Source of the DNA: a virus
Lineage: Duplodnaviria > Caudoviricetes
Direction: 5' to 3' (one strand)
DNA: 64,000 nucleotides
Virus record (IMG/VR): IMGVR_UViG_3300016672_000090
Location: 18,739-82,738 of that record
The first letter of the stretch is position 1; the number at the start of each line of letters is the position of its first letter. Position numbers and translations under genes: made by a program. Shown here piece by piece: positions 16,785 through 62,009 of the stretch. The notes beneath the pieces are model-generated. The model did not search any database, had not been told where the DNA came from, and worked only from the letters and a program-made list of their open reading frames with translations.

Positions 16785-16826
16785 ATTGTCTATGGCTATG
16801 CGCCAGCCTTCCGTGGCTGGTTTGCG
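16785..16826 (-). promoter_or_regulatory. Putative late promoter (lysis)
   Basis: CGCAAACC; GACAAT 30 nt after GCAAA. Confidence 0.7.
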
Positions 16827-16830
16827 CGGT

Positions 16831-17079
16831 TCAGACGCCTTTCTTGGCGATGATTTGCGCCACGTTGCCCAGTGATTTAATGATCGCGTCCAGGCGGTTA
16901 AGCTCGGCTTGGACCACCTTGTTTTCGTTTTCTCGCCCGCTCTTCCAGTTGCTGAAAGGCTTGCTTTCGAACAGCTTGCTTACACGGCTACCGGTGAGTT
17001 TCCCGGCCTGTGCCAAGTCCTGCCCGAAGTACAGCGCCAGCTCAGCACGAACAGCGTTATACGACTCCCATAACTGCAC
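16831..17079 (-). CDS. Hypothetical tail-associated protein
   Basis: 82 aa, GTG start, overlaps upstream ORF by 23 nt. Confidence 0.55.
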   Translation of the reverse strand: MQLWESYNAVRAELALYFGQDLAQAGKLTGSRVSKLFESKPFSNWKSGRENENKVVQAELNRLDAIIKSLGNVAQIIAKKGV

Positions 17080-17821
17080 GCGCCCCGATGCTGATGCAGG
17101 AACGGGAAGGAAAAATGGCCGGTGCTAACTCTGGCTCCCCCTCTGCGCGCACGGAAACAGGGTGGGCCACAACGCCGTGGACGCAGGTAACTGCATGCAC
17201 CAGGTGCGCGCCGCTATCACGGACGCTTTCATAGGCATGGAACAGCTTTACGAACTCGGACGCGGGCAGCTTGCGGTGGTTGGCAATGCGCTTCACAAGC
17301 CACGCCTCATAACTGGCATCGTCGACGTAGGGCTCTGGCTCTTCATTAGCGCCACGCACGCACGCCGCTATGGTTGCGCACCACCAGCTAAAATCGGTCG
17401 GCTTGTAGGTTCCGCCAGCGATCAAGGTTTCGATGATTTCAGCCTGATAGCCCAGCAGCGGCGTATACAGCGCATCGTTACCATCAAAACTGAATGGTAT
17501 GTCGCCCACGTAATCGTGGTCCTGAGCATTGATCAGGAAGTCGCTAAAGTTCCCACCGCCCACGGGGAAGTCCGGGCCGTCATCACGGGTGGCTGCCATG
17601 TAGTTGGCCACCACATAAATTCGCTCATTGATCGACCAGAAGCGTGGATCAGCTACTGCATTGGGACGATCCACCGGCTTACAGACTCGGCGCAGCAGCT
17701 CGCTGACCGTGCGCTGCTCGTAGACAGCCGGGATTTCGCACAGCTTCTCCACGTCCTCAATGAGCATTTCGGACATTTCAACCGATATACGGCGTGTATT
17801 TATGGGGTTGATGTACTTCAT
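17057..17821 (-). CDS. Putative tail assembly/stability protein
   Basis: Start MKYIN coupled to upstream stop; tail operon position. Confidence 0.55.
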   Translation of the reverse strand: MKYINPINTRRISVEMSEMLIEDVEKLCEIPAVYEQRTVSELLRRVCKPVDRPNAVADPRFWSINERIYVVANYMAATRDDGPDFPVGGGNFSDFLINAQDHDYVGDIPFSFDGNDALYTPLLGYQAEIIETLIAGGTYKPTDFSWWCATIAACVRGANEEPEPYVDDASYEAWLVKRIANHRKLPASEFVKLFHAYESVRDSGAHLVHAVTCVHGVVAHPVSVRAEGEPELAPAIFPSRSCISIGARAVMGVV

Positions 17822-18525
17822 AGCGTTCCAAAGGAGTCGTATTGGGTGAATGACAGGTTGAGTGCGGCGAACTCGTCTGTACTGCGCGAAAGATTGACCT
17901 CGCACGACACGGGCAGCAGCACCCAGCTTTTGGAATAACCCCGGCCTTCCTCTACGGCGCCATGGGTCACTGTGATGGTGTTGGCGTATTCAGACGGCAA
18001 GCCAAAGGTGCCGTCTGGATGCGCTGCAAGCATGGCCAGTCGGTCAAACCAAGTTTTGATTTCCCCGCCCACGTCGTAGCAGACGATGCGCAGCTCTATC
18101 GGGTCGGCCCCCGTAGGGGCTTGAGTGAAGCCCGAACCAATTTTTACCGGTTCATACCCAAGCTGGACGCTGTTAAAAGACACCTCTGTAGCCAGCAGAT
18201 TGACGCGGGGAGCCGACAACTTGCCCACCGGATCGACGCCGATATGCCATAGATTCGTGCGCTCACGCCGGACGCTGGATGCCTCTTCGTACATTTGGAG
18301 CTGCTTGGCCCAAGACACCCCAGCCAGGATTGTGTTTCCGCCTTCGGAAAACACACTTGTGCGACCAAAAATTGTATCGAGCAGGCTATTGGCCGCACCG
18401 CTCAGATCGCCGTTCAGCAGGTTGCGCGCTGCGGTTGTGTACTTGAGTACTTGGGTGCTCAAGCCCAGCTTGGGCGTTATGGACTCAATGCCCTGATACG
18501 CCAGCCGCTCAAAGATGTTGGCCAT
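17818..18525 (-). CDS. Putative baseplate/tube-initiator protein
   Basis: 235 aa beta-rich tube-like C-terminus; tail operon. Confidence 0.5.
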   Translation of the reverse strand: MANIFERLAYQGIESITPKLGLSTQVLKYTTAARNLLNGDLSGAANSLLDTIFGRTSVFSEGGNTILAGVSWAKQLQMYEEASSVRRERTNLWHIGVDPVGKLSAPRVNLLATEVSFNSVQLGYEPVKIGSGFTQAPTGADPIELRIVCYDVGGEIKTWFDRLAMLAAHPDGTFGLPSEYANTITVTHGAVEEGRGYSKSWVLLPVSCEVNLSRSTDEFAALNLSFTQYDSFGTL

Positions 18526-18929
18526 TAAATCGACCTCACTTCGTACACAAATGTCAGCTGAGGCAAGCGCAGCTCATAGTCCAAAATCGATTGAACGACC
18601 TCGGACACGGTTCTGCCATAAAGCTCAGCGCCCTGGCTTCGGGAGGCCTCCAGCGCCGTAGAGTTCTCTTTCTCGATGTACAGGAGCCACAAGGGGCGGA
18701 TGATCGCCAGTTCGCTGTGCGTCAGCTCCACATCGATGGGTGCCGGCAAGGTGTCAGCGGTATACAGATCGCTGTGCACGGTATCGAGTGACTGCGAACT
18801 GGTCAGCCGGGCATATCCACAGTATTGGCGCACCGCATCGCGCAGATTGCGGCCTATCTGCTCTTCCGTCAGCACACAGCCAATCGGCAGCTCAGCAATG
18901 TACTGTTCAACTAATTGGCTGACTTTCAT
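18525..18929 (-). CDS. Putative virion morphogenesis protein
   Basis: 134 aa in tail operon. Confidence 0.5.
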   Translation of the reverse strand: MKVSQLVEQYIAELPIGCVLTEEQIGRNLRDAVRQYCGYARLTSSQSLDTVHSDLYTADTLPAPIDVELTHSELAIIRPLWLLYIEKENSTALEASRSQGAELYGRTVSEVVQSILDYELRLPQLTFVYEVRSI

Positions 18930-18931
18930 GG

Positions 18932-19405
18932 TTACTGGTTCGCAAACCAGTGGAACGTCATGGTGCCGGCCAGGATGAATACCTGCATATCGTTTTCCCA
19001 GTCACGATCTGGTGTATCCATCACCAAGATGCACTTTTTCAAGTCCTCTTTTTTGGTGTAGTCATCAGGGCGCCCGGCGTAGACGGTAGCGTTGAACTCG
19101 CCACCCTGAGCGATGATCTGCTTTAGGAACTCGCCAGCTTTGTTCTTGCGGGTTTCGTTGATTTGAATCGGGCCTTCCTGCATGGTCTTGTTTTGGGCAG
19201 CCTGGCCCATTTTTTGGCCAAGTGGCCCCCAATGCTCAATCACACCGCCCGCGGTTGCTACCGGCCAAGGGAATTGCTTGCACAGCAGCATCATGTCTTC
19301 AAAGCCTTCGATCACCATGGTGGCGTCGGCCTGGACTGCCTTAGCGCCCATGTCGTTGACGTTTTGAAACGTGCGGCTCAATACCGACATACTGGAAACG
19401 GTCAT
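18932..19405 (-). CDS. Tail tube protein (P1 Tub/BplB-like)
   Basis: 157 aa; IEHWGPLGQKMGQ...IQINET resembles P1 tube-family proteins. Confidence 0.7.
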   Translation of the reverse strand: MTVSSMSVLSRTFQNVNDMGAKAVQADATMVIEGFEDMMLLCKQFPWPVATAGGVIEHWGPLGQKMGQAAQNKTMQEGPIQINETRKNKAGEFLKQIIAQGGEFNATVYAGRPDDYTKKEDLKKCILVMDTPDRDWENDMQVFILAGTMTFHWFANQ

Positions 19406-19440: not shown

Positions 19441-19482
19441 ATCGTCACATGTAAAAAACCCCGCCAAATGACAGGGTTTGCA
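19441..19482 (-). promoter_or_regulatory. Putative late promoter (tail tube)
   Basis: TGCAAACC; GACGAT 30 nt after GCAAA. Confidence 0.7.
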
Positions 19483-23063: not shown

Positions 23064-23462
23064 TTAGATTGCCTCCTTAGCGGCTGGCTTTGCGGCCTTG
23101 CCAGCGGCAGGCACTGGAGCTACTGCCGGGACTGTGGTTTCTTCCAGCGCTGGCGCCAAGGCCTCTACCGCTGGAACTTCTGCTGGCGTCAGCACGGCAA
23201 AGTCTTCGGCTTCATTGCCGGCATGGCGCGCCAGCTCAGCGAGGTCAGTTACCAACAGCCAGGCCTGGTCGAAGCTCTTAACCTTCACCTGGACCTTCAC
23301 ATTTGGTTCAATCGGGGTGTTGATGCCCGAGGACGGGACCACCAACGGTTTTTTGTTCTTGTGCGTCAACGACGCCCAGAACGGCAAGACCTGGCCTTCC
23401 ACCAGCGCCTGAGCAAGAGGGCGCGGGGCACTGCCAGCTTTTTGATCAATTTTTACGGTCAT
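23064..23462 (-). CDS. Hypothetical virion protein
   Basis: 132 aa between capsid and sheath; Ala/Pro tail. Confidence 0.55.
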   Translation of the reverse strand: MTVKIDQKAGSAPRPLAQALVEGQVLPFWASLTHKNKKPLVVPSSGINTPIEPNVKVQVKVKSFDQAWLLVTDLAELARHAGNEAEDFAVLTPAEVPAVEALAPALEETTVPAVAPVPAAGKAAKPAAKEAI

Positions 23463-24129
23463 ATTTCACCTGCAAACCTTTGAGGTTGTCCCACTTGTGC
23501 GCCCTTGCACTGCTGGTCAGCGCTTTGGCGAGTTTGGCGAACTGATCCGCTGTAACCTCGACCTCGGCCTTGGCGTAGGGGTCCAAGAAAATCTGGGCGC
23601 CAGCTACCGGGATGCGGCTTCGGGTGTGGTTTTCGAGAACAATCGTTGCCGGGAACTCGCTAATTTCAGGAAGCGCCCACACGGTCAAAGTTACGGCACA
23701 GTCAGCGGCTTTTTCGGCGCCGGTTTGCGCGGTTTCCAGGCTCTCAGTACGGGCTTGGTCGTAGGCATGGGCCTCGCCTTCAAGAAAAGCCATTTGCTCA
23801 GCCAGAAGGTTGGCAGCTTCGGTGCGCCTGGCGTCCTCAGCCAAGGCTTCTTCCTCAAGCAGGGTCATTTTCAGCGCCAGCAACCGCGCAGCTTCGGTAC
23901 GCTCGGCGTCCTCAACTCGTGCTTCGCCTTCCAGAAGGGCCATTTCTCGTAGCGCTTTATCCTCTGCGCTTTCGTCTTCACTTCCAGCGCTATCGGGTGC
24001 ATTACCAGCGGGCGCACCAACGCCCGGTGAGGTCGCGGATTGCTCCACGCCTCCCGGAGTTGTGGGGGCCGCTGCGGATTTAGCGGCAGCAGGCTTTTTG
24101 CCCGCTGCTGGAGTGCTTTTCGCAGCCAT
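23446..24129 (-). CDS. Hypothetical virion protein with three 25-aa repeats
   Basis: MALLEGEA / MTLLEEEA / MAFLEGEA at a 75-bp period. Confidence 0.6.
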   Translation of the reverse strand: MAAKSTPAAGKKPAAAKSAAAPTTPGGVEQSATSPGVGAPAGNAPDSAGSEDESAEDKALREMALLEGEARVEDAERTEAARLLALKMTLLEEEALAEDARRTEAANLLAEQMAFLEGEAHAYDQARTESLETAQTGAEKAADCAVTLTVWALPEISEFPATIVLENHTRSRIPVAGAQIFLDPYAKAEVEVTADQFAKLAKALTSSARAHKWDNLKGLQVKYDRKN

Positions 24130-24140
24130 GACAGCCCCCT

Positions 24141-25823
24141 TTAGCCCAGTGCGTACACGTTTTTGATGGTGATCAGCGCGCAACCCATTGCGGATTGCAT
24201 GTGCGGGTTCACTTCGGTCAGCTGGCGGGAGAACAGCGCCGCGCCGGTTTTCAGATCCGAGTTCACCGCCAGCGGGATCAAGGTCGGGGATACCGCGTCA
24301 GAGAAGACAATCGGGTTACGCGCAACCTGAGGGGAACGACCGACACACAGGATTTCGATATCTACGTCGGTTTCTTGAACGACATACGGGGTGTAGATAA
24401 CGTCGTACTTGTTCTTGTAGCGGCCCACACGCCAGATACCAGCCTTTGCATCCACACCCGACGCAACAAAGTCAGTGCTATCCATGGAAAGGAACTGAGA
24501 CATACCGTGAGCGCCCACGTACATGAAGCTCAAACCGAATTCCATGGTCTGGTTGGCCACTTCCTGGTCAACAGCAGCAACGAACGAGCCGAAGTCGCGC
24601 CAGCCTTGAGCACGGGTTTTCTGCAACAGCTGCTCGGCGGCGTTGAAGTCGTATTCGCGATTGGTGTTCTTGGCCAGCTTGCGAATTTTTTTCAGCGCGG
24701 AGATATAGCGCTCATTCGCCATCTGAGTGCGCGCGGCCTGGACAGCGATGGTCAGGCGATCCGCACCCAATTCAGACTGAGCGGAACTGCGCGAATCAGG
24801 GGTAGCCTGCATGATCACGCGGCTAGGCGCGCAGTACAGGGAAAAGCTCTGCGCGACGGTACCGATGTTCGGCGCCAGTTCAGGCTTGCGCTCGAAGTCG
24901 ATAAAGCCTTGTGCTTCCACGTCGACATCAGCGGCCAGGGCCGGGTTGAACGTCAGGGTACCGACGCCGGTATCCACGTTAACGCTACCGTTAATAACGT
25001 GGTTCTGAGTACCGACCTTCACTTGACCGGAAATCAACGAGGTGACTGTGCCGGAGTTATTGGCCTGCTCGAAAGCAACCGGGAAGCCGTTAACGACAAT
25101 CGATGTACGGTTGCGGATCAGCGGGACAGTGCCGCCGCCAGCGATGCCAGCAGTAACCGCGAAGGTGCCACCAGTACGAGCAACGTCAACGGTAACGGGC
25201 ACAACTCGTTCGGAGCGAGTGTATTCACGACCGCCAGCAGTACCGTCGATGATATCGCCAGCGTTGTATGCGCCGAATGTAGAACCCGTGATCGAGGTAA
25301 TGATTGCCAGCTTCGACTCGTTAGAGCTGAGGTCAGATGGCAGATACGCGCCGAACGGAATTGCTTCGCTCAGACCACCGGTGATTGCCACAGCAATACG
25401 GTTCGGCTGGTGCGACAGGGTTGCCGATGCGTTGTTGGTACTGATGCTGTCCAGGGTAGTGCCATGCGGCAGAACGTGGGCGCTCTTACCGTCAGCAACG
25501 TTTTCAGCCTGAGAGAGGACTGCATCGATCAAGTCAGCGGACGGCGAAAAGCCATGCTTGCGTTGGAAAGTCGCGATACCGTCCAGCATCGAAGTGATAG
25601 CCAGGGCGCGGTTATCGTCACCATCGATTTTGTCCAGCAGGCGAGCAGCTCGCGCCGGCAGCAGGGTACCAGCGTTGGCCACGGCGTTTTTCACCACGTC
25701 CTGAGCCGATGCGCTCATGCTATCGAGCATATTGCCATTGCCACGCGCGGCGCTTACCAGCGTACCAACCTTGGCAGCAACCTCACCCAAACCGGAATCG
25801 GGCGCGTAAATATTCTTCGGCAT
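24141..25823 (-). CDS. Major capsid protein (P1 gp23-like)
   Basis: 560 aa, highly biased codons, GAGG RBS, N-terminal MLDS propeptide motifs. Confidence 0.8.
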   Translation of the reverse strand: MPKNIYAPDSGLGEVAAKVGTLVSAARGNGNMLDSMSASAQDVVKNAVANAGTLLPARAARLLDKIDGDDNRALAITSMLDGIATFQRKHGFSPSADLIDAVLSQAENVADGKSAHVLPHGTTLDSISTNNASATLSHQPNRIAVAITGGLSEAIPFGAYLPSDLSSNESKLAIITSITGSTFGAYNAGDIIDGTAGGREYTRSERVVPVTVDVARTGGTFAVTAGIAGGGTVPLIRNRTSIVVNGFPVAFEQANNSGTVTSLISGQVKVGTQNHVINGSVNVDTGVGTLTFNPALAADVDVEAQGFIDFERKPELAPNIGTVAQSFSLYCAPSRVIMQATPDSRSSAQSELGADRLTIAVQAARTQMANERYISALKKIRKLAKNTNREYDFNAAEQLLQKTRAQGWRDFGSFVAAVDQEVANQTMEFGLSFMYVGAHGMSQFLSMDSTDFVASGVDAKAGIWRVGRYKNKYDVIYTPYVVQETDVDIEILCVGRSPQVARNPIVFSDAVSPTLIPLAVNSDLKTGAALFSRQLTEVNPHMQSAMGCALITIKNVYALG

Positions 25824-25876: not shown

Positions 25877-25918
25877 ATGGTAAGAGCGAAAAACCCCCGT
25901 TTTTGGCGGGGGTTTGCA
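25877..25918 (-). promoter_or_regulatory. Putative late promoter (capsid)
   Basis: TGCAAACC; TACCAT 30 nt after GCAAA. Confidence 0.75.
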
Positions 25919-29450: not shown

Positions 29451-29492
29451 ATTTTGAGGCGCGGTAATTACCCTGGTCGGGGGCAGTTTGCG
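29451..29492 (-). promoter_or_regulatory. Putative late promoter (MTase protein)
   Basis: CGCAAACT; CAAAAT 30 nt after GCAAA. Confidence 0.65.
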
Positions 29493-30443: not shown

Positions 30444-30486
30444 ACTCTAAAGCACTAAAACGTATTAACTCTTTAGTGGCTTTGCA
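30444..30486 (-). promoter_or_regulatory. Putative late promoter overlapped by TAACTCT(A/T)(A/T)AG boxes
   Basis: TGCAAAGC; TAGAGT 31 nt after GCAAA; boxes at 30442 and 30466. Confidence 0.5.
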
Positions 30487-32550: not shown

Positions 32551-32567
32551 AATCGAACCTCTGGTTA

Positions 32568-32593
32568 ATAGAAAACCCCCAATAAAGGGGGTT
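32568..32593 (-). terminator. Terminator-like hairpin upstream of aca1
   Basis: AACCCCC/GGGGGTT stem followed by a T-run on the minus strand. Confidence 0.5.
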
Positions 32594-32610
32594 GCACGTT
32601 CGGCCACCAG

Positions 32611-37264: not shown

Positions 37265-37306
37265 ACGATACCGCCCGTTGCCCCCGCTCCCGGCTGACGG
37301 TTTGCG
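37265..37306 (-). promoter_or_regulatory. Putative late promoter (darA-like)
   Basis: CGCAAACC; TATCGT 30 nt after GCAAA. Confidence 0.7.
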
Positions 37307-40667: not shown

Positions 40668-40699
40668 GACTGCCCCCATGGATTGGATAACTGAGGGAT

Positions 40700-40741
40700 A
40701 TTGTGAGGGCTGGAAGTTGCCGGGCACTGGTGTGCTTTGCG
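40700..40741 (-). promoter_or_regulatory. Putative late promoter (Hdf-like)
   Basis: CGCAAAGC; CACAAT 30 nt after GCAAA. Confidence 0.7.
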
Positions 40742-44869: not shown

Positions 44870-44923
44870 AAAGCACCTCGACACTTCGCCCGGCGTACCC
44901 GGACAAAGTATCCCTATACATAT

Positions 44924-49028: not shown

Positions 49029-49070
49029 ATGCTACTTCCCAAAAAACAATCTAAACCGGGGGGCTTTGCA
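49029..49070 (-). promoter_or_regulatory. Putative late promoter (tail fibres)
   Basis: TGCAAAGC; TAGCAT 30 nt after GCAAA. Confidence 0.72.
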
Positions 49071-51495: not shown

Positions 51496-51537
51496 ATGAT
51501 GGCAAACAAAAACCGCCCTATTGCGGGGCGGTTTGCA
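51496..51537 (-). promoter_or_regulatory. Putative late promoter (baseplate)
   Basis: TGCAAACC; CATCAT 30 nt after GCAAA. Confidence 0.7.
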
Positions 51538-51553
51538 GTAATCGGGCGGCCTG

Positions 51554-53896
51554 TTAGTTCATCCCTATGCCGCCGCTTGAGACATGAGCAATCTGCCTGT
51601 CCTCAAGGTTCTGGCTGAGCGGTACCGACATTTGAATTGCCTGATTGCTGGGCGCTTTGCTGGGCGACATCTGTGGTTTTTCGACCACGGGCATGGCTGG
51701 GAATTTGACCAGCGATGCGTCTGGGGCAGGAGCTGCATAGCTTGGCGCGACCATGGTGCTGGCGCTAACCGGCTTGATAGACGCCATGCTCATGGCTGGT
51801 ATAGCCGGGGCCATTACGCCAACCGGCTGAGCACTTGATAGGCCAGGCGCCACAGAGGGACTTGGACCTACCGGCATAATGCCTACGGGCGGACTACCCC
51901 TGACTGCTGACATGGTACTGGCCAGCGCCGCATTGGCCGCGTACGGGGCTTGCACCTTGCCCTGATCGGCGCGCCGGGTGGGTGTCAGGTCGCCAGCCTT
52001 TGCCTGAGCCAGATAACCGTCATATTTAGCCTGTACGTCGCCTAGGCCATTGGTGCCGCCATTTGTGAGCTTGCGGGCGCGTACTTGGTCGCCAGCCATA
52101 GCGGCTTTATCGGCGCCTGAACTCTTCCAATGCTGTACAGCTATCTGTGCGGAGTACTTCGGATCCATTGCTAGTTCCGGGTTGTTCTCCAGGTCGATGC
52201 CCAGCGCTTTCCCCATGGCTGCGTACTGAGCCTTGCCAGTCAACTGTATAGCCCCACGCCCACGGTACTTGTACCCATCGCCATCCGCATTGTTCCCCAT
52301 GCGGTTGCCATAGACCTTGTTGGCAATAGCTTCCGGGTTGTTGGCATCAGCACGGGCTGCCTCTGGGGTGCTGTAGTACTTGGGGAACACTTCCTGTAGT
52401 CGCTTGGCGCTGTAGTTTAGATTTTCTTCATTTTTGGTGAATCCGCCACTTTCGTGGTCGACGTTGGCCATGAGCATAGCTTTCGACTTCTGGTCAGTAA
52501 TACCGCCAGCGTCCATAGCCTTGATCAGTTCGGCCTTGCGCCCATCAGATCCATCAGCGCCAAGGCGCCCGCCTGATATTTTGTAGGCCGAATTTTGCGC
52601 TGAATCCTTGGCTGACGCGGCCTTGCTGCTAACAAAGTCTTTGCTGCTCTGTACCTTGTCGCTAATGGTGTCCTTGATGCCCAGCACGACATCTGCGACC
52701 TTGCGGAAAGTCTCTTTTATGCTGTCGGTCATTCCGGTTAGGAGTTTGACGGCGGTTGTCACCATGCCGCCCCATGCCTTGGTAATCGATGTGAGGTCGA
52801 CGGTAGAGAGCCAATTCCCGACCATCCCTCCTAGTTGGTCACCAATCACCGCGCCAGCTATGGCGCCAGCAGGACCGCCAAGCATCCCTAGCACACCACC
52901 AACTAGACCTCCGACGCCGCCGCCTATGTTTTCATAGCGCTTTGTCTTGTTCTCTTGAGGCGTCAGGTTCGGATCATCACCGGCCATTAAGTCACTGGCC
53001 AGCAGCCCCCCACCAATCAGCGCCCCAATGAAAGGGATCTTTTTTAGAATCCCCTTGAGAAGCCCACCGCCAGCCCCGCCAGCACCAGCCCCGAATAACG
53101 AGCCAAGCCCTTTAACAAGCCCAGTAATCCCCGTCAGCGCTCCCAGTGCCTTAATCGGCGCCATGATCATGCCGAGCATAGATAGCAAGGCCGTCATGAT
53201 CAGGCCCATACCACCACCGCCCCCACCACCTGGCGCTCTTAGGGCGTTCCAGATGCGGCGGTACCAGCTTACATTCTCACGCTGGTTTTTCTGTTCAGGC
53301 CGTCGACCAATTCCGAACATTCGCCCCATGGGCCTGAGGACACCCATAATTGGCTGGAAAATGCCGCCAATCTCTTTTACTGCCTGGACAGTTGGATCGA
53401 TACCATCAGCCCCAGACGCCAAGGCCCCAGCCGCACCTTTCAAGCTCGCGGCAGCATCCCCCATAGCCTCGGTAGCGCGATTGCTGGATCCGGGCCGTGA
53501 TGGACTGTTATCAGGGGGCGCGTCATCTTGGCCAGGCGGCACAGGGTTGCGTGGGCGCCATCGTCCGCTCTCATCACGGCCACGGTCTGGACTTGGCGGA
53601 CCAGCGGGCGCAGGCGCTGGAGGTATCGGCGCCGGACCGGGCGGTCTAGGCGCAGGACTTGGGGGCGGCATGGGTGGCGCTGGCCTAGGCCGTGGCGCTG
53701 GTCCTGGCGGCGGTTGCGGGGCGGGAGGACGAGGGGGGTTAGATAATGCGTTGGCAATCGACGATAGTTGCGAAAGGGTTGCAGCCGTGTCCCGCTGAAT
53801 TGCCTTAAGCACCTCAATTTCTCGGCCTATCTGGTCGAGAGTTTCCTTCATCGTCGCCCTTAGGAAACCATCCGAGTCGGAAGGAAGGATACTCAT
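51554..53896 (-). CDS. Tape measure protein with GH19 lysozyme/chitinase-like domain
   Basis: Gly-rich hydrophobic segments; DHESGGF..EENLNYS, YRGRGAIQLTG; poly-Pro insert. Confidence 0.78.
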   Translation of the reverse strand: MSILPSDSDGFLRATMKETLDQIGREIEVLKAIQRDTAATLSQLSSIANALSNPPRPPAPQPPPGPAPRPRPAPPMPPPSPAPRPPGPAPIPPAPAPAGPPSPDRGRDESGRWRPRNPVPPGQDDAPPDNSPSRPGSSNRATEAMGDAAASLKGAAGALASGADGIDPTVQAVKEIGGIFQPIMGVLRPMGRMFGIGRRPEQKNQRENVSWYRRIWNALRAPGGGGGGGMGLIMTALLSMLGMIMAPIKALGALTGITGLVKGLGSLFGAGAGGAGGGLLKGILKKIPFIGALIGGGLLASDLMAGDDPNLTPQENKTKRYENIGGGVGGLVGGVLGMLGGPAGAIAGAVIGDQLGGMVGNWLSTVDLTSITKAWGGMVTTAVKLLTGMTDSIKETFRKVADVVLGIKDTISDKVQSSKDFVSSKAASAKDSAQNSAYKISGGRLGADGSDGRKAELIKAMDAGGITDQKSKAMLMANVDHESGGFTKNEENLNYSAKRLQEVFPKYYSTPEAARADANNPEAIANKVYGNRMGNNADGDGYKYRGRGAIQLTGKAQYAAMGKALGIDLENNPELAMDPKYSAQIAVQHWKSSGADKAAMAGDQVRARKLTNGGTNGLGDVQAKYDGYLAQAKAGDLTPTRRADQGKVQAPYAANAALASTMSAVRGSPPVGIMPVGPSPSVAPGLSSAQPVGVMAPAIPAMSMASIKPVSASTMVAPSYAAPAPDASLVKFPAMPVVEKPQMSPSKAPSNQAIQMSVPLSQNLEDRQIAHVSSGGIGMN

Positions 53897-54799
53897 CTAG
53901 AGCCCCCCGATGACTTGACGCACAAGGTCGATGCTTTTGGCCAGGACGCCGGACTTCTTAGCTGCCTCAACTTCCTCAGGTGCAGGCTCAAGGTCTGGCA
54001 GCTTTGCATTCATGAATCGATCAGCGCTGTCGAGCATATCCGCCGCACGGCTTGGCATGAACTCGGAGCCACGTTGAAGCGTGGAAGGGCTGGCGCTGTC
54101 GAGCATGGCGCCATTGCCATCCTTGAGCCGTTGCATCAGTCGGGCATTCAAGTCGATAAGGTCGTCGTTCTCTTTGCACTGGCGTAGATACGCTTCACTG
54201 ATACCGGCTGCCTGAGCATCGCTCTCAGCAATGATCGCGTCCAAGCTATCCATCAGGGCCGAACACTCGCCAGCGAAGCCCAGCGACTCAATGGCGCCCG
54301 GCGCGACGCCATCTAGCATCGCGTCATAGCCCTTGTTGGTGTTGTAGTTCGGCGTTCTGACGAAATCCATCCCGTGAAAGGTTTTTGGCGTACGCTTGCC
54401 GTTCTCTTCGGGAGCATGAAACACCGAACTGAACCCATAGGCCTTGCTGTCGTACAAGCGACCAGCGATGCGGCCTGGCGCATTGCTCAAAAACTCCTGC
54501 TCGTGCTCTATGGTGCCGTCAGGCATGCACTTGATGTAGATCGTGCGCACACTGGGCTCAAGCACCACCACCTTTCCGCCCTCGGTAACCGAGTCAGGCA
54601 CGTGTAAGCCGTATTTTTCTCTGAATGTGTGGCCTACGTAGCCGTATACGTCCCCTTGGCGCACCAGCTCCTGTACCGCCTGGCCATTGATCAAGCGCAT
54701 GGCGGCAGCAATGTCCACGTCGCGGTGCTGACCATTAAAGTCGCGGCCTCGATCATTCAAGTTGTAACTGATAACCCCTGTGCGCTTACGCATGATCAT
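53897..54799 (-). CDS. Prohead protease (P1 Pro-like)
   Basis: GDVYGYVGH and FHGMDFVRTPNY match recalled P1 Pro blocks; follows portal. Confidence 0.72.
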   Translation of the reverse strand: MIMRKRTGVISYNLNDRGRDFNGQHRDVDIAAAMRLINGQAVQELVRQGDVYGYVGHTFREKYGLHVPDSVTEGGKVVVLEPSVRTIYIKCMPDGTIEHEQEFLSNAPGRIAGRLYDSKAYGFSSVFHAPEENGKRTPKTFHGMDFVRTPNYNTNKGYDAMLDGVAPGAIESLGFAGECSALMDSLDAIIAESDAQAAGISEAYLRQCKENDDLIDLNARLMQRLKDGNGAMLDSASPSTLQRGSEFMPSRAADMLDSADRFMNAKLPDLEPAPEEVEAAKKSGVLAKSIDLVRQVIGGL

Positions 54800-56382
54800 T
54801 CCTCACCCTGTTCTGTCGTGCTGTTCGGTAGTAGTTGCGGTTCGTTGTCACCACCGAAGCCGCCGCCCATGTCAGGCGCTGGCGGTTTTGCTTCCTTGAT
54901 CCCTTTGGCGAAAATCTTGGCTTTGTCGGTATCGACTTCCATCATCGTGGCCATGAACTGCTCCATCATTGATTCAGGCAGGCCCATGGTGCGCATGAGG
55001 TCCATACCCTGGAGCAGCATCACGCCGCCACTGATTGCACGCTCTCGGCTGGCCTGCTTCTCTGCCTCAAGGGCTGCGATTGATCCGAAGAAGTTCACGT
55101 CATAAGGGCGCTCGTCGTCTGACCAGCACCGGCCATGTTTAGCCAGCATGTGGCGATCGATCGTGTCGTTAACCGTCTGCATGAAAGATGAACGGATGAT
55201 CCGGGAGCGCTCAGCTGCTTGGCTGCTGGTACGGTTAAACCCGCCCTCACCAAGCCCGCCTGCCATTTGGTCAGCAAAGCCAACCATTGATAGGTCAATG
55301 CCCAGCGTGCCCGCCAGCTTGCGGGCGCAAAACATCACGTCTTCGATGTTGGCGCCGGCACCGGAATTGGAGCCGCCCTGAAAGGAGCTGATTTGTGTCA
55401 GCTGTTTTTCGTTGTGAATCGGCATGATGTGGAAGTTACGCGACGTGGCGTATGTGCCTGTACGCACCGCTTCATCGGCCCGTGTCTTCATGCTGAGCAG
55501 CATCTTTTCCAGCGAATCCATGAAGTTCTTTTTCTGCTGCTCCGTCATGTCCGCCAGGTTGGCGCCAATCATCGTTTCGTCAATCGAACCTGTGATGCGC
55601 TGGCCAATCATTCCGCGTATGGCGGATATAAGGTTGTCGTAGTCGACCTCTGCCGCTTCCAGGAACGAGCCGCCAACCAGCGCCGGCAACGGCCTTATAT
55701 CGCGGGGTTCCTTAGCTTCAAGGTTGATCTTTTGGGCATTCTCTATGGCGCGCATCTGAGGCAGATACACCATGCGCGGCATCCGCATACGCACCATGTC
55801 CAGGTGATTGAAGCGGCTTTGCAGCTTCGACCCTAGACTGACGATATAGCCCACCGTCTGGCCTAGCTCTTCATAAGCCTGCACCAGCGGCGAGAATGGT
55901 TGCTCGCTATCGAAGGCAAACATGCCCTCGCCCTTTTTGGTGTACAGCCTGGCGTAGGCGTCACCGAAGGCGCAGGCGTTAAAACACATGCCGTGGGCGT
56001 GCTTATTGAGGGTCTTGGCGATAAATTGCAGCTCGTCGACCGCCTTCTTATCAGCCGCCGAGGCGTTAGGCTTTGCCTCAATGAAGATCGTTTCGCCGGT
56101 CGTCTCGTGACCACCCAGCGCCATCTGTACGTGCAACCGCAGGATCGTGCTTATAAGCCCGTCCTGAATCATGTAGTGCCACTTCTGATAGATCGCAGAG
56201 CGTGACCGGGCCGGACGGTCACTCGCCCCCAGCAGCATTTCAATGCCGACGTAATCAGCATCGAACGTGCTTATTCCCTCCATCCGGTTTTCGGGCGCCT
56301 TGCTTACCTCGCCCAGCAAAAGCTGTGTGGTGCTTGCAAGCGACCCCCACAGGCTTTTCTTCGCTTTCTTAACGTCGGCCAT
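54796..56382 (-). CDS. Portal protein (P1 Prt-like)
   Basis: 528 aa; LGIDLSMVGFADQM.GGLGEGGF; head operon. Confidence 0.75.
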   Translation of the reverse strand: MADVKKAKKSLWGSLASTTQLLLGEVSKAPENRMEGISTFDADYVGIEMLLGASDRPARSRSAIYQKWHYMIQDGLISTILRLHVQMALGGHETTGETIFIEAKPNASAADKKAVDELQFIAKTLNKHAHGMCFNACAFGDAYARLYTKKGEGMFAFDSEQPFSPLVQAYEELGQTVGYIVSLGSKLQSRFNHLDMVRMRMPRMVYLPQMRAIENAQKINLEAKEPRDIRPLPALVGGSFLEAAEVDYDNLISAIRGMIGQRITGSIDETMIGANLADMTEQQKKNFMDSLEKMLLSMKTRADEAVRTGTYATSRNFHIMPIHNEKQLTQISSFQGGSNSGAGANIEDVMFCARKLAGTLGIDLSMVGFADQMAGGLGEGGFNRTSSQAAERSRIIRSSFMQTVNDTIDRHMLAKHGRCWSDDERPYDVNFFGSIAALEAEKQASRERAISGGVMLLQGMDLMRTMGLPESMMEQFMATMMEVDTDKAKIFAKGIKEAKPPAPDMGGGFGGDNEPQLLPNSTTEQGEE

Positions 56383-56413
56383 TGTCTGTACGCATTAGTC
56401 CCATTTACGGGTC

Positions 56414-56455
56414 AGCGTACAGACGGTTTTTAGCCATTCTGGGCAGGGGTTTGCA
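56414..56455 (-). promoter_or_regulatory. Putative late promoter (portal)
   Basis: TGCAAACC; TACGCT 30 nt after GCAAA. Confidence 0.72.
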
Positions 56456-56469: not shown

Positions 56470-56973
56470 CTACAGCTTCCCGGTAACATCCTCGTCGGGG
56501 CGAGGGTTAACCAAGTACTTGCGGGTGTACGGGTGGATATTCACGTTGCCGGTAACGTCTACGATTTCATAATTGATAATCAGGCCGCCACCCATCAGCA
56601 AAGCCACCAGCATGCGCTTGCCTGGCTGAACGTAACCCGGCTTGTCCGGATCAATGACGGGCTCGATAGAAGCCTCTGTCACGCCCTCGGGATAGTTCAG
56701 CCGCCCACCATCGTCGGACGTGTTACCCAGTGGTGCGGCGAAGCCCTGAGCGAAGTGAATACGGGCGTCACAGGCATAAACCCACGAATAGTTCACCTCG
56801 TCCTCATCGTTCATCACGCCAGCGCCACCCATGGTCGGAGAGCCGTCATAGCTGTAACTGTCTGACTCACGGTCCACACGCTTGGAGAACAGCACGCAGT
56901 CGATAGCGTTAGGCTCTCGCAGCGTGCGCTGGCGGTTGGCCCGGTTGATTGCGATTGCGACGTTGTTGAGCAT
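56470..56973 (-). CDS. Putative head completion/neck protein
   Basis: 167 aa beta-rich; position upstream of portal. Confidence 0.5.
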   Translation of the reverse strand: MLNNVAIAINRANRQRTLREPNAIDCVLFSKRVDRESDSYSYDGSPTMGGAGVMNDEDEVNYSWVYACDARIHFAQGFAAPLGNTSDDGGRLNYPEGVTEASIEPVIDPDKPGYVQPGKRMLVALLMGGGLIINYEIVDVTGNVNIHPYTRKYLVNPRPDEDVTGKL

Positions 56974-56976: not shown

Positions 56977-58050
56977 TTAACCCTGTGCGTTGTCGGCGGC
57001 GGTGATAGCGATCCGCGCGGCGTTTTCGGAATAGCCCAGCTTCATCATGGTCTTGATCTTTTCGTCCATAGGCACAGGCTTATTGACCTTCGTGGCGTGG
57101 GTGCGGCGCAGCTCATCGTTAGCCGCCTTGACCTTCGCCGCCTCCACGGCCTTGCGCTGCTGTGCTGGCTGGGCGGCACGTTCGGCGCGCTTCTCTTCTG
57201 AGGTCTTGATAGTGCGGTCACGTTTGCGAGCGCTGGCGGCCTTGTCGATGAACGCCTGCTGTTCCTTGACGGTCATAACACGCTGCTTACCACTCAGCGT
57301 CTTGCGCCCGTGCTCGATCATGCGTAGAGCGAAGTGGTTGAACGTGGCGCCGTGGCTAATGGCGCCCATCACCTTTAGGACGTGCTTGCAGGCCACGCCA
57401 CGCAGCGCCGGGTTGCGGATCTTGGGGAACCCGTCCTCAGACCGCCCATAGTTGAAGTTGGCAGCGCTGGCGATGAAGCGTAGAAAAAACGTGTGGTGCT
57501 TGCAGTCGCAGTCAAAACGAACCTTCCCGCGCCCCAGCAACTTGGCCGCATCAGCAGCAGAACCGCCGCCGGACACTGCCAGGTCATAACTGAGGAACTG
57601 CACCATGACATGGTGGCGGGCCACGTTTGAGTTAGGGCCTGAGTTGGTCTGAAAGTGAACTACGCCTGCACGGTTACCGACTGGCATTACCGTATGGATC
57701 TGTGCGTTAGACCGCTCACGGTCAGCAGTGAGCGAGTAATCTATTACCCGTCTAACCAGTATCCCGCCAGATGCCTGCTTGCTGTGCTGGCCATGCACAC
57801 GCTGAATGTCCTTTACCGCCGCCCTGAACGCCAGAATATCGTCATGCCCCAGCAGTCGAGGCTTACCGTCAATTGTGGTGAATAGCGCCCGCTTGGGATC
57901 GTAAAGCCCGCCTAGGTCATCAGCAGACAGGATCTTGGCGTTATCCCCTAGTCGGCGTTGTAGATCGAACTCAAACGCCTCTCTGGCCTGCTTAGCCGAC
58001 TTGCGGGCGTCCTGCACAATGTCCGAACGGTTCTGGTCCTTGGCAGCCAT
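56977..58050 (-). CDS. SWIM-type Zn-finger morphogenesis protein
   Basis: CDC...(x~33)...CKH pattern, basic C-terminus. Confidence 0.55.
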   Translation of the reverse strand: MAAKDQNRSDIVQDARKSAKQAREAFEFDLQRRLGDNAKILSADDLGGLYDPKRALFTTIDGKPRLLGHDDILAFRAAVKDIQRVHGQHSKQASGGILVRRVIDYSLTADRERSNAQIHTVMPVGNRAGVVHFQTNSGPNSNVARHHVMVQFLSYDLAVSGGGSAADAAKLLGRGKVRFDCDCKHHTFFLRFIASAANFNYGRSEDGFPKIRNPALRGVACKHVLKVMGAISHGATFNHFALRMIEHGRKTLSGKQRVMTVKEQQAFIDKAASARKRDRTIKTSEEKRAERAAQPAQQRKAVEAAKVKAANDELRRTHATKVNKPVPMDEKIKTMMKLGYSENAARIAITAADNAQG

Positions 58051-58346
58051 CAGCGAACCGACCTAACAGCCGTAGTGATACCGCACTTCTCTTTGAGATA
58101 GCGCAGATACGCAATCGTAGGCAGTACCAGGTCTTGCTCTTTGAGTTCGGCGTCGACATTTGGTAGACCAGCAGCCGCGAGGATCACGCGTGTCTCTGTA
58201 GCGTCTCCCAGCGCCCGCCGTGCTACTGCCGACAGGTTGTATCGCTCACTTGGCAGCGTGCGGACAACTTGGCAGTTTGCGGAATAGGTCGGCTCAGTGG
58301 TGGCAAACCTGCGCACCTCTCGATAAAACCGTGACTCTTCGATCAT
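58050..58346 (-). CDS. Small baseplate (LysM/gpX-like) protein
   Basis: ER.NLSAVARRALGD....VILAAAGL. Confidence 0.55.
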   Translation of the reverse strand: MIEESRFYREVRRFATTEPTYSANCQVVRTLPSERYNLSAVARRALGDATETRVILAAAGLPNVDAELKEQDLVLPTIAYLRYLKEKCGITTAVRSVR

Positions 58347-58376
58347 GTCCATTCCCCCCATAGATAGCCAGGAGGT

Positions 58377-58418
58377 AGTTTCACATGCCGGGGGGATGGG
58401 ACTGGCCGGCGCTTTGCA
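58377..58418 (-). promoter_or_regulatory. Putative late promoter
   Basis: TGCAAAGC; GAAACT 30 nt after GCAAA. Confidence 0.62.
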
Positions 58419-59091: not shown

Positions 59092-59904
59092 TCAGCTCCA
59101 CAGACCCTGTTGCACGCCCCACTCACCGCGCAAGTACTCCAAGTTCTGCTGGATTTCAGCTTCACTCAGTACGCGATTGAAGTAAGCAACAAGCATGACG
59201 GTGGATTGGCCGGTGAAGCTATAAGGCGAAGCGCCAATTCTCAACGGTGGGCCGAAGGCCGCTGGGGGGCGCGAGAAGGTTGGCGCTCCAGATGCGTAGG
59301 CCTGCTTCAGCAACGTAGCGCCTGGTGTCGGGAGCATGCCCACCATATGGCGATCAGGTGCCCCAGTGAACGTACCAAAGATTGCCATCGGAGCCGCTGG
59401 TGGCAGCGATACGTTCAAATAAGCCGCTGGCGAACCTTGGGGAGTAACGCCATCACCCGGACAACTGGCTGCTGCGCCTACCACCTGACCGGCACCACTG
59501 AAGTTGGTGCCACACCACAGAACGTCGCCGTTACCGCTTCCGCTTGCCGGAGCGTTATAGCCGGATACGACTGGGATCGAAGCGCCAAAGTTGGCTGGGG
59601 CACTTTGTGGTTTTGCGATTGCTAGGATTGTCCCTTGCGGGCGGGCCTGCATGTTCATGCTGTAGTAGTTGCTGTGATCACAAACCGCGCCATTTTCCAG
59701 CAATGCTGGGGAGCCCACTTTAATCAGTGGGGCGCCGCCAGAAACAAAGTTCTGGATTTCGCGGCCACCCGAATCACGCAGGTAGTAGAGGCCCAGCAGC
59801 CCAGCAGTAACTGGCAAACGCGGAGTGACGTCCAAGAACGATTTAAGCGTTGGGTAGCCAGTACCTGGAAGGGTCACGCCGGTGAGTCGAAGAACGTTGC
59901 TCAT
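59092..59904 (-). CDS. ConA/LamG-like beta-sandwich protein
   Basis: Gly/Pro/Ala beta-rich; ends VAYFNRVLSEAEI typical of LamG-like domains. Confidence 0.55.
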   Translation of the reverse strand: MSNVLRLTGVTLPGTGYPTLKSFLDVTPRLPVTAGLLGLYYLRDSGGREIQNFVSGGAPLIKVGSPALLENGAVCDHSNYYSMNMQARPQGTILAIAKPQSAPANFGASIPVVSGYNAPASGSGNGDVLWCGTNFSGAGQVVGAAASCPGDGVTPQGSPAAYLNVSLPPAAPMAIFGTFTGAPDRHMVGMLPTPGATLLKQAYASGAPTFSRPPAAFGPPLRIGASPYSFTGQSTVMLVAYFNRVLSEAEIQQNLEYLRGEWGVQQGLWS

Positions 59905-59913
59905 AGAGTCGCC

Positions 59914-61473
59914 TTATTTCAGTAGGTAGTTATAAATATGGCGGCAAAGGATTTCGGCGCCGTAAACATTCAGGTGCAAGTCGTCCATCCACAGGCCAAG
60001 CCCGTTGGACTTTGCGAACAACGGAAAGATGGAGTGGATGTCAGCAAACTCGCAGCCCGTAGCACGGGCAATTTGCTGTCCAAGGTCACGAAAGGTAGTC
60101 AGGGGTTCGGCGGCCACACCGTTGCTGTCAGGGGGCGCGATAATGATGATGCCCACGTCCGGACGGCCTTCGCGATGCTTGGCGATCATGCCTGTCAGCC
60201 CGTCGATATACCCCTGCACATCACCAGCGCGATAATCATTGGTTCCCAGGCTGATAATCAGCAGGTCGGCTTCGAGATCGGACGCGTAATCCGCGATATA
60301 GGGCAGCATCTTTACCGCGTACCCGCCGCGCAATCCGCCGCGCCCACACTTCAAAACCTCAAAGCCAGAGACATCGCGCGTGGCGTAGAACCCGTACAAC
60401 GTGACGGTGCTGGCATTACCGGTCGTATCGATTTGCAGTTCATGGGCTGCATCAGGCAAGCCCTCGACAACGATCTTTTCCCGTGCACCCAAAACGCCTG
60501 AAGGGGCCGTGGCCCAGTCCCCGCCGTCAACCCGATAACGGAAAATGCCTGGCCCGCCCCGGTAGTAGATGACAATTTTGGTAGCGGTCAGGTTGCTGAT
60601 TTTTACGGTCGCGTTTGACAGGTTCGTGGTGATCGATCCACCGTCGAATGCACAGCCATATTCGGGCGGTAACGGCGTGGCACTGGCGTCGTACAAGGTC
60701 CACCCCGTACGCGAAGCGGTCACCCCGTTGGTCATGCGATTCAGCAAGGCGCTAATCCAGCCATAGCCCGCCCGGCCATAATCCAGCGCCAGCAAATCAC
60801 CCATTTTGTTGGGAATGGTGTCCAGGTCACTCCAAGAGTCACCGGCAAACATCACTTTCAACTTTGCGGAAGCGCCATTTTTCAAAAGCGCGCACTTGGC
60901 TTTGTAAAGCCAAAGTGATTTGCCTGTGGTTGTAAGTAGCTGGTTAAGATCAACAGGGAGATTGGCAATACTCGCTTCGACAATCGCCTTAACTGCCGCT
61001 GTCAAACTTGGACCAAGGCCCACGGCCTCCAACATGCCTTTATCTAACCAGATGGCAACCTTGTCGCCATGATCCATTAAAACTGGTACGCGTGATGGGT
61101 CATATGGCTGGAAGACCTCAAGGCCAAGTGCCTTACGAAGAACTGGCCCCAGCCCCAGAGCATCCAACATGCCTTTATCTAACCAGATGGCAACCTTGTC
61201 GCCATGATCCATCAGAAAAGGAACAAAGGAATCGTCCTGAAGTTTGACAGGCAACAAGCCAATGTCCGCTAAAATAGTAGGGCCGAGCCCCATCGCATCA
61301 AACTTGCTGTCATCAAACCAAGCGGGAACATTGCCTACTTCGTCAACAACGAACGGCACCATTTTGCTGTTCACAATGACGCGCAGTATTTTTTCAGCAA
61401 GCGCAGCATTCAACTCAGGCAGGTGAGCAACCTCAAGGATTTTAAGTGCAGCTGATAGCTCTACAGTCTCCAT
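59914..61473 (-). CDS. SGNH/GDSL hydrolase with N-terminal repeats
   Basis: AGDSWS, LGTND, D.LH blocks; three ~45-aa repeats. Confidence 0.82.
   Translation of the reverse strand: METVELSAALKILEVAHLPELNAALAEKILRVIVNSKMVPFVVDEVGNVPAWFDDSKFDAMGLGPTILADIGLLPVKLQDDSFVPFLMDHGDKVAIWLDKGMLDALGLGPVLRKALGLEVFQPYDPSRVPVLMDHGDKVAIWLDKGMLEAVGLGPSLTAAVKAIVEASIANLPVDLNQLLTTTGKSLWLYKAKCALLKNGASAKLKVMFAGDSWSDLDTIPNKMGDLLALDYGRAGYGWISALLNRMTNGVTASRTGWTLYDASATPLPPEYGCAFDGGSITTNLSNATVKISNLTATKIVIYYRGGPGIFRYRVDGGDWATAPSGVLGAREKIVVEGLPDAAHELQIDTTGNASTVTLYGFYATRDVSGFEVLKCGRGGLRGGYAVKMLPYIADYASDLEADLLIISLGTNDYRAGDVQGYIDGLTGMIAKHREGRPDVGIIIIAPPDSNGVAAEPLTTFRDLGQQIARATGCEFADIHSIFPLFAKSNGLGLWMDDLHLNVYGAEILCRHIYNYLLK
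61028..61212. repeat. 50-bp exact direct repeat (135-bp period) within the SGNH gene
   Basis: 61028-61077 equals 61163-61212; encodes MDHGDKVAIWLDKGML. Confidence 0.9.
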
Positions 61474-61476
61474 TAT

Positions 61477-61641
61477 TTAGCCCCTTCTTCTGACGACCCG
61501 CACGCCGTTAAATTCAACAAAACTTCCATTCGAAACAACCACCTTTGAATGAATCAAAAATCCAATATTTTTTGGACCGCTTACCGAATTAGTAGCCACA
61601 CGCAAACAGACCGAACGTAAAATCGGGAGCAATACGCCCAT
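61477..61641 (-). CDS. 54-aa ORF not in the ORF track
   Basis: MGVLLP...VVSNGSFVEFNGVRVVRRRG*; fills the gap between coupled genes. Confidence 0.5.
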   Translation of the reverse strand: MGVLLPILRSVCLRVATNSVSGPKNIGFLIHSKVVVSNGSFVEFNGVRVVRRRG

Positions 61642-61644
61642 GCG

Positions 61645-61932
61645 TCAACCCAAGTCCGCAAAGACACCAAAGGGTGCGCCCTTGTATTCAGGTCTACTTA
61701 CGATGAAAGTACCGGGACCTAACAGAGCTGTAGAGCGTGAGGCTTGATATAGGCGCCCTACTATGTTTCTGGCGCCGGGTGTGGCTTGCTTGATTTCAAA
61801 CTGCACACCGACCGGCGCCGACTCATCCGAGGCGGAATAGATACCAACCATGGCCACAGCTCCAGCAGAAACCACAATCTCACTCGATATGGCTGCTATA
61901 TTGCCTGGCGCTAATATTGATACTGCTGTCAT
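61645..61932 (-). CDS. Small beta-rich virion protein
   Basis: GGAGG RBS, first gene after a late promoter. Confidence 0.55.
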   Translation of the reverse strand: MTAVSILAPGNIAAISSEIVVSAGAVAMVGIYSASDESAPVGVQFEIKQATPGARNIVGRLYQASRSTALLGPGTFIVSRPEYKGAPFGVFADLG

Positions 61933-61967
61933 GCCATGCCTCCAAGCCAGCCACTTTATAAGCCCCC

Positions 61968-62009
61968 ATCTTATGGCGCCGAAAAGCACTTAAAAGCTCA
62001 TGGTTTGCA
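61968..62009 (-). promoter_or_regulatory. Putative late promoter (SGNH module)
   Basis: TGCAAACC; TAAGAT 30 nt after GCAAA. Confidence 0.72.

Follow-up and report, generated by a model that had tools for sequence, protein, structure and literature searches.

A GCAAA box set 30 nucleotides from a −10-like hexamer as a putative late-promoter element of a P1-like Pseudomonas phage-plasmid

The virus record IMGVR_UViG_3300016672_000090 (IMG/VR; 82,738 bp, estimated completeness 96%) raises the question of how the virion and lysis operons of a P1-like phage-plasmid are switched on. The window, that is, the whole stretch of 64,000 nucleotides (nt) analysed here, comprises bases 18739-82738 of this record, and the minus strand holds nearly all genes. 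An initial annotation of the window had pointed to the sequence YGCAAASY upstream of operons on this strand, followed at a fixed distance by a −10-like hexamer, and had read the pair as a class of late promoter with no −35 element and with an activator box near −45. Every computational test that we ran supports this core reading. The GCAAA-N30-hexamer units very probably represent activator-dependent σ70 late promoters of a P1-like lineage of Pseudomonas phage-plasmids; we infer promoter function, start-site positions, activator dependence and the identity of the activator from the sequence features described below.

A GCAAA box and a hexamer at a fixed distance

The 12 GCAAA positions listed in the initial annotation are correct, all of them on the minus strand, and so are the 12 hexamers (Table 1). 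The spacer between GCAAA and the hexamer is 30 nt in 11 cases and 31 nt in one (30481). Twelve copies proved to be an undercount, with one more spacer-30 site in the window and three outside it. The bipartite pattern YGCAAASY-N29-ANNNT has 12 matches, all on the minus (gene) strand, compared with 1.49 ± 1.29 expected from dinucleotide shuffles, and none of the 100 shuffles reached 12. Genome-wide, 14 of the 33 minus-strand 8-mers are followed by a hexamer with A at its second and T at its sixth position (A2/T6) at a spacer of exactly 30 nt, whereas any other spacer from 24 to 37 nt gives only 0-4; among the plus-strand 8-mers, 0 of 10 have such a hexamer at spacer 30. In an unbiased scan of all 5-mers combined with spacers of 10-44 nt, counting only hexamers in non-coding DNA, GCAAA/30 ranks first (12 vs a mean of 0.94; Poisson p 4e-10). 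A chance origin was rejected on the basis of the shuffles and the spacer control.

The GCAAA sites precede the portal, baseplate-wedge, baseplate, tail-fibre, capsid-like/sheath, tail-tube and lysis operons, with start codons located 14-41 nt downstream of the hexamers. They also precede the Hdf-like gene, the DarA-like gene and the genes for 1158-amino-acid (aa) and 242-aa products and, outside the window, the resolvase and large terminase genes. The early/replication block (window 1-16000; NA37, dUTPase, Ref, SSB, RdgC and integrase) contains no GCAAA-N30 sites. The structural operon 44087-44884, with the genes downstream of it, is an exception and sits behind another box, TGTATAGGGAT, instead. 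The motif had also been taken to mark cargo genes as late. Placement agrees with this for the DarA-like and Hdf-like genes, but the methyltransferase and SGNH labels given to other window proteins were reproduced by neither Pfam nor PHROGs.

Table 1. Coordinates of the putative late promoters, the second box, the LytTR operon and the GGAAA sites of a distant relative
Feature	Coordinates (window unless stated)	Strand	GCAAA position	Sequence	Downstream genes	Remarks
Putative late promoter	61968..62009	minus	62004	TGCAAACC ... TAAGAT, spacer 30	operon 61645-61932 / 59914-61473 (tail protein) / 59092-59904	directly after LytTR-operon terminator
Putative late promoter	58377..58418	minus	58413	TGCAAAGC ... 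GAAACT	baseplate-wedge operon 58050-58357, 56977-58050, 56470-56973	TGn extended −10; orthologues differ in spacer sequence, length stays 30 nt
Putative late promoter	56414..56455	minus	56450	TGCAAACC ... TACGCT	portal operon 54796-56382, 53897-54799, 51554-53896	
Putative late promoter	51496..51537	minus	51532	TGCAAACC ... CATCAT	baseplate operon 51147-51461, 49766-51160, 49075-49764	intrinsic terminator in spacer; box AAA part of stem
Putative late promoter	49029..49070	minus	49065	TGCAAAGC ... TAGCAT	tail-fibre gene 47118-49001	
Putative late promoter	40700..40741	minus	40736	CGCAAAGC ... CACAAT	Hdf-like gene 39306-40670 (phrog_1620)	
Putative late promoter	37265..37306	minus	37301	CGCAAACC ... 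TATCGT	InPase-DarA_N-ddrB/ParB fusion gene 33659-37240	
Putative late promoter, variant	30444..30486	minus	30481	TGCAAAGC ... TAGAGT, spacer 31	putative 242-aa gene product 29671-30399	
Putative late promoter	29451..29492	minus	29487	CGCAAACT ... CAAAAT	1158-aa gene 25940-29416	
Putative late promoter	25877..25918	minus	25913	TGCAAACC ... TACCAT	capsid-like (phrog_1014) / tail sheath / PmgG-like operon	terminator in spacer
Additional spacer-30 site	23688..23729	minus				inside open reading frame (ORF) 23446-24183; kept in three genomes; either a promoter within the ORF or a coincidence of coding (uncertain)
Putative late promoter	19441..19482	minus	19477	TGCAAACC ... GACGAT	tail-tube operon, 18932-19405 and downstream	TGn extended −10; terminator in spacer, with compensatory changes in relatives
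Putative late promoter	16785..16826	minus	16821	CGCAAACC ... GACAAT	lysis operon 16444-16770, cell-wall hydrolase 15770-16348	
Extra spacer-30 site	genome 4078 (outside window)				large terminase	
Extra spacer-30 site	genome 8219 (outside window)					inside 3' end of HTH_3 regulator gene
Extra spacer-30 site	genome 9795 (outside window)				Holliday-junction resolvase	
LytTR-fold protein, 127 aa, stand-alone	62555..62938	minus				leading activator candidate (fold prediction, co-occurrence)
Partner gene of LytTR operon, 160 aa	62076..62558	minus				co-conserved with LytTR gene
Second box (another promoter/operator class, not GCAAA)	62995..63005	minus		TGTATAGGGAT	LytTR operon	
Second box, other places	44910-44920, 9781-9791 (minus); 10435-10445 (plus); genome 8872-8882 (minus, outside window)			TGTATAGGGAT		
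GGAAA sites of genome G005 (L031-L034)	G005: 62694, 26921, 22557, 15354, 12365, 1358				capsid-like and other operons	

The record encodes a P1-type gene set. Specifically, this includes the virion proteins (portal, tail sheath, tail tube, baseplate and a PmgG-like protein), an Hdf-like protein, an InPase-DarA_N-ddrB/ParB fusion, a Ref-like nuclease and a PacB-like large terminase that is 35% identical to P1 PacB. Further genes encode ParA, an integrase, SSB, RdgC and the NA37 nucleoid protein. Pseudomonas isolates carry close homologues, and a syntenic 81-kb Pseudomonas atacamensis plasmid encodes RepA and MipZ/ParA; by these sequence relationships the element is a P1-like Pseudomonas phage-plasmid. 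Megablast against a public phage collection gave no matches, a plasmid collection gave a single partial match, from which the P. atacamensis SM1 plasmid NZ_CP070504.1 was reached, and a genome-contig scan using the portal protein gave no match. Public sequencing runs containing the phage come, as assembled contigs, from wastewater, food and freshwater.

The portal protein retrieved 15 IMG/VR loci, and those with 67-92% portal identity carry GCAAA-N30-NANNNT at orthologous intergenic places. Two complete relatives, G001 and G002, have 15 and 16 sites at spacer 30, with 0-6 and 0-3 at other spacers, respectively, and the P. atacamensis plasmid has 12, with ≤4 at other spacers. GCAAA/30 is also at the top of the unbiased scan in G001 and G002 and is second in the plasmid. 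The place homologous to the site at 29451..29492 lies, in the plasmid, upstream of an LPD1-domain gene and an S-adenosylmethionine (SAM) methyltransferase gene.

The regions upstream of the portal gene in 10 genomes, picked by gene position and not by motif, were aligned with MAFFT. TGCAAA and TACGCTG are invariant in this alignment, and the two positions that follow TGCAAA vary slightly (G/C at the first; C, with one G, at the second). The spacer diverges in sequence and is constant in length (30 nt), while a 12-nt indel is located immediately upstream of the box. The other orthologous promoters behave likewise, with box, hexamer and spacing kept and the spacer sequence diverged. Judged from the alignment, a two-part promoter under a distance constraint would leave just such a footprint.

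Relatives with 40% portal identity lack GCAAA-N30. Upstream of their portal genes is CCGGAAA-N30-TACAGT or the same box with CACAAT (including loci L014/L015). In a 67-kb genome, G005, GGAAA/30 tops the unbiased non-coding scan (6 vs 0.71), a result that is weak by itself (p ~1e-4 among many tests). GGAAA-N30 is credible as a relative of the GCAAA promoter because the spacer is identical, the box differs by one letter and the place is orthologous. It is likely to be a diverged version of that promoter in distant relatives, pointing to a geometry that is old and shared and to a reader that co-evolves. As a control, P1 itself has 3+1 matches to the GCAAA-N30 pattern vs 2+1 to the reversed pattern, i.e., no enrichment.

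Promoter anatomy and the terminators in the spacers

Anatomy was counted over 35 intergenic sites from three complete genomes, with the hexamer taken as −12..−7. The hexamer has the properties of a σ70 −10 element: position −11 is always A and position −7 always T, and no spacer other than 30 gives the A2/T6 peak. Of the free positions, −12 most often has T (17/35; T>G/C) and −8 most often A (21/35), and a subset of sites has a TGn extended −10 just upstream of the hexamer. There is indeed no −35 consensus, as had been proposed; positions −36..−30 carry no information, and a consensus scan calls no canonical promoter at any site, so the sites do not qualify as σ70 promoters with a −35 element.

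The box extends to aaaCCnYGCAAASC, from about −54 to −41, with the core YGCAAASC at −48..−41 and with the G and C of GCAAA invariant in all 35 sites. It is single and asymmetric. A weak tandem copy is present 9 nt upstream in 6 of the 35 sites, a second copy 21-22 nt upstream in 0-2 and an inverted copy in none; a dyad or paired-repeat site was rejected for this reason. Two other readings were also discarded: a σ54 promoter (GG 12 nt upstream of GC), the position of which is not conserved, and an extracytoplasmic function (ECF)-type promoter with AAAC as its −35, the would-be −10 of which is a terminator G/T-run in half of the sites and for which no ECF sigma is encoded.

We propose that the host σ70 polymerase reads the hexamer as a −10 element and that a phage activator binds the asymmetric box at about −54/−48 to −41 and recruits or remodels polymerase. 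The spacer would be invariant at 30 nt because the box needs a fixed face and a fixed distance. Alternatively, the host itself may read the box, through an UP-like contact of the α subunit or through a Pseudomonas regulator, in which case the promoters would be constitutive or host-controlled. Proximal UP subsites lie at about −46 to −38, which matches the position of the box, and the box contains an A-tract. UP elements, however, are A/T-rich and degenerate, whereas the G and C of the box never vary. Moreover, the motif occurs with late-type genes alone and nowhere in the early block, and GGAAA at the same place in a related phage suggests a co-evolving, phage-specific reader. We consider a host reader very unlikely.

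Sixteen of the 35 spacers fold into a strong GC-rich hairpin followed by a T-run (z-score < −1.5), and the AAA of the box pairs with the T-run. This hairpin is the intrinsic terminator of the preceding operon, and its stem changes in a compensatory manner among relatives. In the other half of the sites the hairpin and T-run are absent and the box, the hexamer and the 30-nt distance are retained. Conversely, GCAAA-free terminators exist, e.g., after the LytTR operon and before terL. Thus, the box and the terminator are separable features.

The pairing of the box with the T-run and the compensatory changes could nevertheless mean that the conserved unit acts at the level of RNA or termination, as the A-tract of a bidirectional terminator or as a processing or antitermination signal on a long late transcript, with the hexamer being incidental or a σ-dependent pause. 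The hairpin-less sites and the terminators devoid of GCAAA argue against this. The GC of the box is never mirrored downstream, with no G at the mirror position and no inverted copy, and the invariant A and T four bases apart, with the T and A preferences at −12 and −8, form the signature of a σ70 −10 element. Scans with Rfam and for tRNA gave no matches. An RNA-level element is, in our judgement, highly improbable. In the promoter reading, about half of the promoters would carry in their spacer the terminator of the operon before them, the stem of which has the box AAA at its base. Late operons with such nested terminators would therefore be insulated from read-through and restarted only with the activator.

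Two sites show further hairpins around the predicted start. The −10 hexamer of the portal promoter lies within a conserved inverted repeat, TGTACGC ... GCGTACA (window 56380-56425, minus), the second arm of which is just before the portal start codon. This hairpin could form only in read-through transcripts, and not in transcripts begun at the portal promoter; it may serve to block translation of read-through RNA. At the large-terminase promoter (genome 4008-4043), the predicted start is inside the 5' arm of a terminator hairpin, aagggccg...cggccctttt. The hairpin would stop transcripts from upstream, and transcripts starting at this promoter could not form it. The large terminase itself (PacB type; genome 1700-4012, outside the window) aligns with P1 PacB over two blocks that lie ~240 residues apart, an arrangement consistent with an intein, and its P. 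atacamensis plasmid homologue carries a Hint-domain annotation.

Wastewater-run contigs from related strains break off, or pass into unrelated sequence, at promoter/terminator gaps (window 51508-51560 and 56402-56455), leaving loose ends at 51560 and at 56455. The boundaries of mosaic modules thus seem to fall on these gaps.

Candidate activators and a second box

No gene for any of the known types of late activator that were searched for was found. Tblastn detected no Lpa homologue, and the Lpa family phrog_1704 is absent from this genome and five relatives; no Mor/C-family protein (PF08765), no Ogr/Delta gene and no sigma region 2 (PF04542) is encoded. The sole PF08281 match is a 26-residue helix-turn-helix (HTH) stretch below the cut-off, in ORF 32302-32607. 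Lpa, Mor/C, Ogr and a phage sigma were accordingly rejected as activators.

The leading candidate, which was also among those listed in the initial annotation, is the stand-alone LytTR-like protein encoded at 62555-62938, and we retain it on the basis of fold and co-occurrence. Its Pfam LytTR score is 21.3 bits, just under the cut-off. The AlphaFold2 (AF2) model has a predicted local distance difference test (pLDDT) score of 87.4, and its best Foldseek matches are the LytTR domains 3d6w, AgrA and ComE, with template modelling (TM) scores of 0.55-0.72; at the level of the predicted structure, a LytTR fold is confirmed. All GCAAA-type genomes examined carry a LytTR-like gene, with members as low as about 30-37% identity, and the protein family is confined to this phage lineage. 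PF04397 is too insensitive for the relatives; in the P. atacamensis plasmid, even the true homologue escapes it. The LytTR operon is located directly upstream of the first late promoter and has its own terminator at its end. Another candidate of the initial annotation, a 74-aa Cro-like protein, is unlikely, being missing from the P. atacamensis plasmid, which retains the motif. The remaining DNA-binding candidates are a 90-aa HTH_31 protein in the packaging operon and a 251-aa HTH_3 protein encoded upstream of the small terminase gene.

LytTR sites, each an asymmetric element of ~9 bp, lie just upstream of the −35 position, and regulators of this family act through a pair of 9-bp direct repeats spaced 12 bp apart (PMC6193735). 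Comparison with this family shows both likeness and difference. As for AgrA, ComE and HdrR/BrsR, the element is asymmetric and a LytTR-fold protein is encoded, but the family rule is two repeats, whereas here there is one box with only the weak tandem copy 9 bp upstream, and the protein has neither a receiver domain nor a membrane partner. Our literature search turned up no report of a LytTR protein acting as a late activator in a phage.

Several observations weigh against the proposed promoter class and its proposed reader. The 8-mer by itself is at chance level, with 32 YGCAAASY matches vs 29.2 ± 5.1 in shuffles, and 20 of the 32 fall in coding DNA. The evidence therefore rests on the bipartite geometry, and the 8-mer was dropped as a stand-alone motif. 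Two of the spacer-30 sites sit within coding sequence, where conservation is possibly driven by the protein. The sites depart from the two-repeat rule of LytTR regulators (taken as repeats 11-13 bp apart), with a second copy at −21/−22 in 0-2 of the 35 sites. G005, which appears to have the GGAAA geometry, has no detectable LytTR-like gene and does have an HTH_3 homologue; weak tblastn matches of remote LytTR-like proteins in G005 fell within a DnaB helicase gene and were dismissed as noise. Finally, co-occurrence cannot separate the LytTR-like protein from HTH_3, HTH_31 and several small unknown proteins. That the LytTR-fold protein reads the GCAAA box is, with the sequence evidence on both sides, a tentative assignment that falls somewhat short of an even chance.

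The same observations raise the alternative that the promoter is as described and the activator is the XRE-family HTH_3 regulator (genome 8070-8825, outside the window) or a different small protein conserved in these phages. The HTH_3 gene shares synteny with terS, which parallels the pairing of lpa and pacA in P1, and its homologue in G005 (29% identity, E 7e-12) is syntenic as well, in a genome with apparent GGAAA-N30 and without a LytTR-like gene. In addition, the single box misfits LytTR, and HTH_31 and several unknown small proteins also co-occur with the motif. XRE-type HTH proteins, however, usually bind palindromes as dimers, whereas the box is asymmetric and has no dyad partner. In the P. 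atacamensis plasmid, a GCAAA promoter precedes the HTH_31 gene, which is thus late. The HTH_3 gene lies behind the variable TGTATAGGGAT box (TGTACGGGGATA in the plasmid) and looks like the gene of a repressor, not of the GCAAA reader. On this balance, we regard an activator other than the LytTR-fold protein as unlikely.

The second box is found ahead of the LytTR operon, of the genes for the HTH_3 regulator and SSB, and of a baseplate-V-type operon. TGTATAG is the most non-coding-enriched heptamer core in the genome, with 7 of its 8 copies in non-coding DNA. G001 and G002 have the TGTATAGGGAT box at the corresponding places, where the P. atacamensis plasmid has TGTACGGGGATA, in one case as an inverted pair. 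Written as TGTAYRGGGAT, the second box changes among genomes, while GCAAA stays invariant. From this behaviour the second box looks like an immunity operator or an early-promoter element. The HTH_3 protein looks like its repressor, because the box varies like an immunity operator and precedes the HTH_3 gene itself, and the LytTR gene, by analogy with lpa under C1 in P1, looks like a target of that repressor.

The HTH_3 gene also contains an internal GCAAA-N30-GAGCAT site (genome 8179-8223), which is kept in 4/4 GCAAA-type genomes although the protein diverges. The small terminase gene starts 560-730 nt downstream of this site, and the gap of ~600 nt between them contains no convincing ORF, Rfam family or tRNA.

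Comparison with known late promoters

P1, a phage of the same kind, likewise has many dispersed late promoters (11, dependent on Lpa) with a −10 element, no −35 element and a need for a phage factor. The annotated late promoters of P1 (LPpac, LPhot), in contrast, have a 9-bp element at −22 beside the −10, whereas here the box is at about −45, across a 30-nt spacer. In the 35 sites, positions −25..−14 show only terminator T-runs and no shared 9-mer. Together with the absence of an Lpa homologue here and of GCAAA-N30 enrichment in P1, the position of the box bears out the earlier claim that the promoters differ from the Lpa/−22 type. The activator gene of P1 is under an immunity-type operator (P1 record; PMC10695390).

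The late and middle promoters of Mu, activated by C and Mor, have a −10 that is recognisable but lack a typical −35; their activator site, with its centre at −43.5, overlaps the −35 region (PMC2582627). In position, the box agrees with these promoters, as its strong part is centred at about −44.5. The Mu sites, however, are 16-bp imperfect dyads bound by dimers, whereas the box is asymmetric and has no dyad partner, and no Mor/C gene is present; Mu has 4 late promoters and this genome has about 15.

P2, 186 and P4 (activators Ogr, B and Delta) likewise have several late operons, each with a −10, no −35 and an upstream activator site. The P2-type activator site is TGT-N12-ACA near −55, and this pattern occurs in none of the 35 sites. 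Thus, the promoter described here is closest to Mu C/Mor in position and to P1 Lpa in logic, and is a member of neither family.

The regulation may then run as a cascade, in which an immunity-controlled early promoter would drive the activator (LytTR being the candidate), and the activator would drive about 15 late promoters. Such a cascade would be P1-like and yet built of parts non-homologous to C1 and Lpa. The full combination of a LytTR activator working from a single −45 box, a cascade rebuilt from non-homologous parts, a box that doubles as a terminator A-tract and a co-evolved GGAAA variant is, taken jointly, possible but on balance rather doubtful.

The motif provides a sequence-only discriminator of late vs early operons in uncultured Pseudomonas phage-plasmids as well as in isolates. 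It flags the DarA-like protein, the Hdf-like protein and a large protein, the plasmid counterpart of which adjoins a methyltransferase gene, as co-expressed with the virion. A compact promoter/activator pair with strict spacing and built-in terminators could also serve as an orthogonal switch in Pseudomonas. More generally, a conserved P1-type structural module can run under a different regulatory module, and LytTR as the activator, if true, would represent a new role and a new binding mode for this family.

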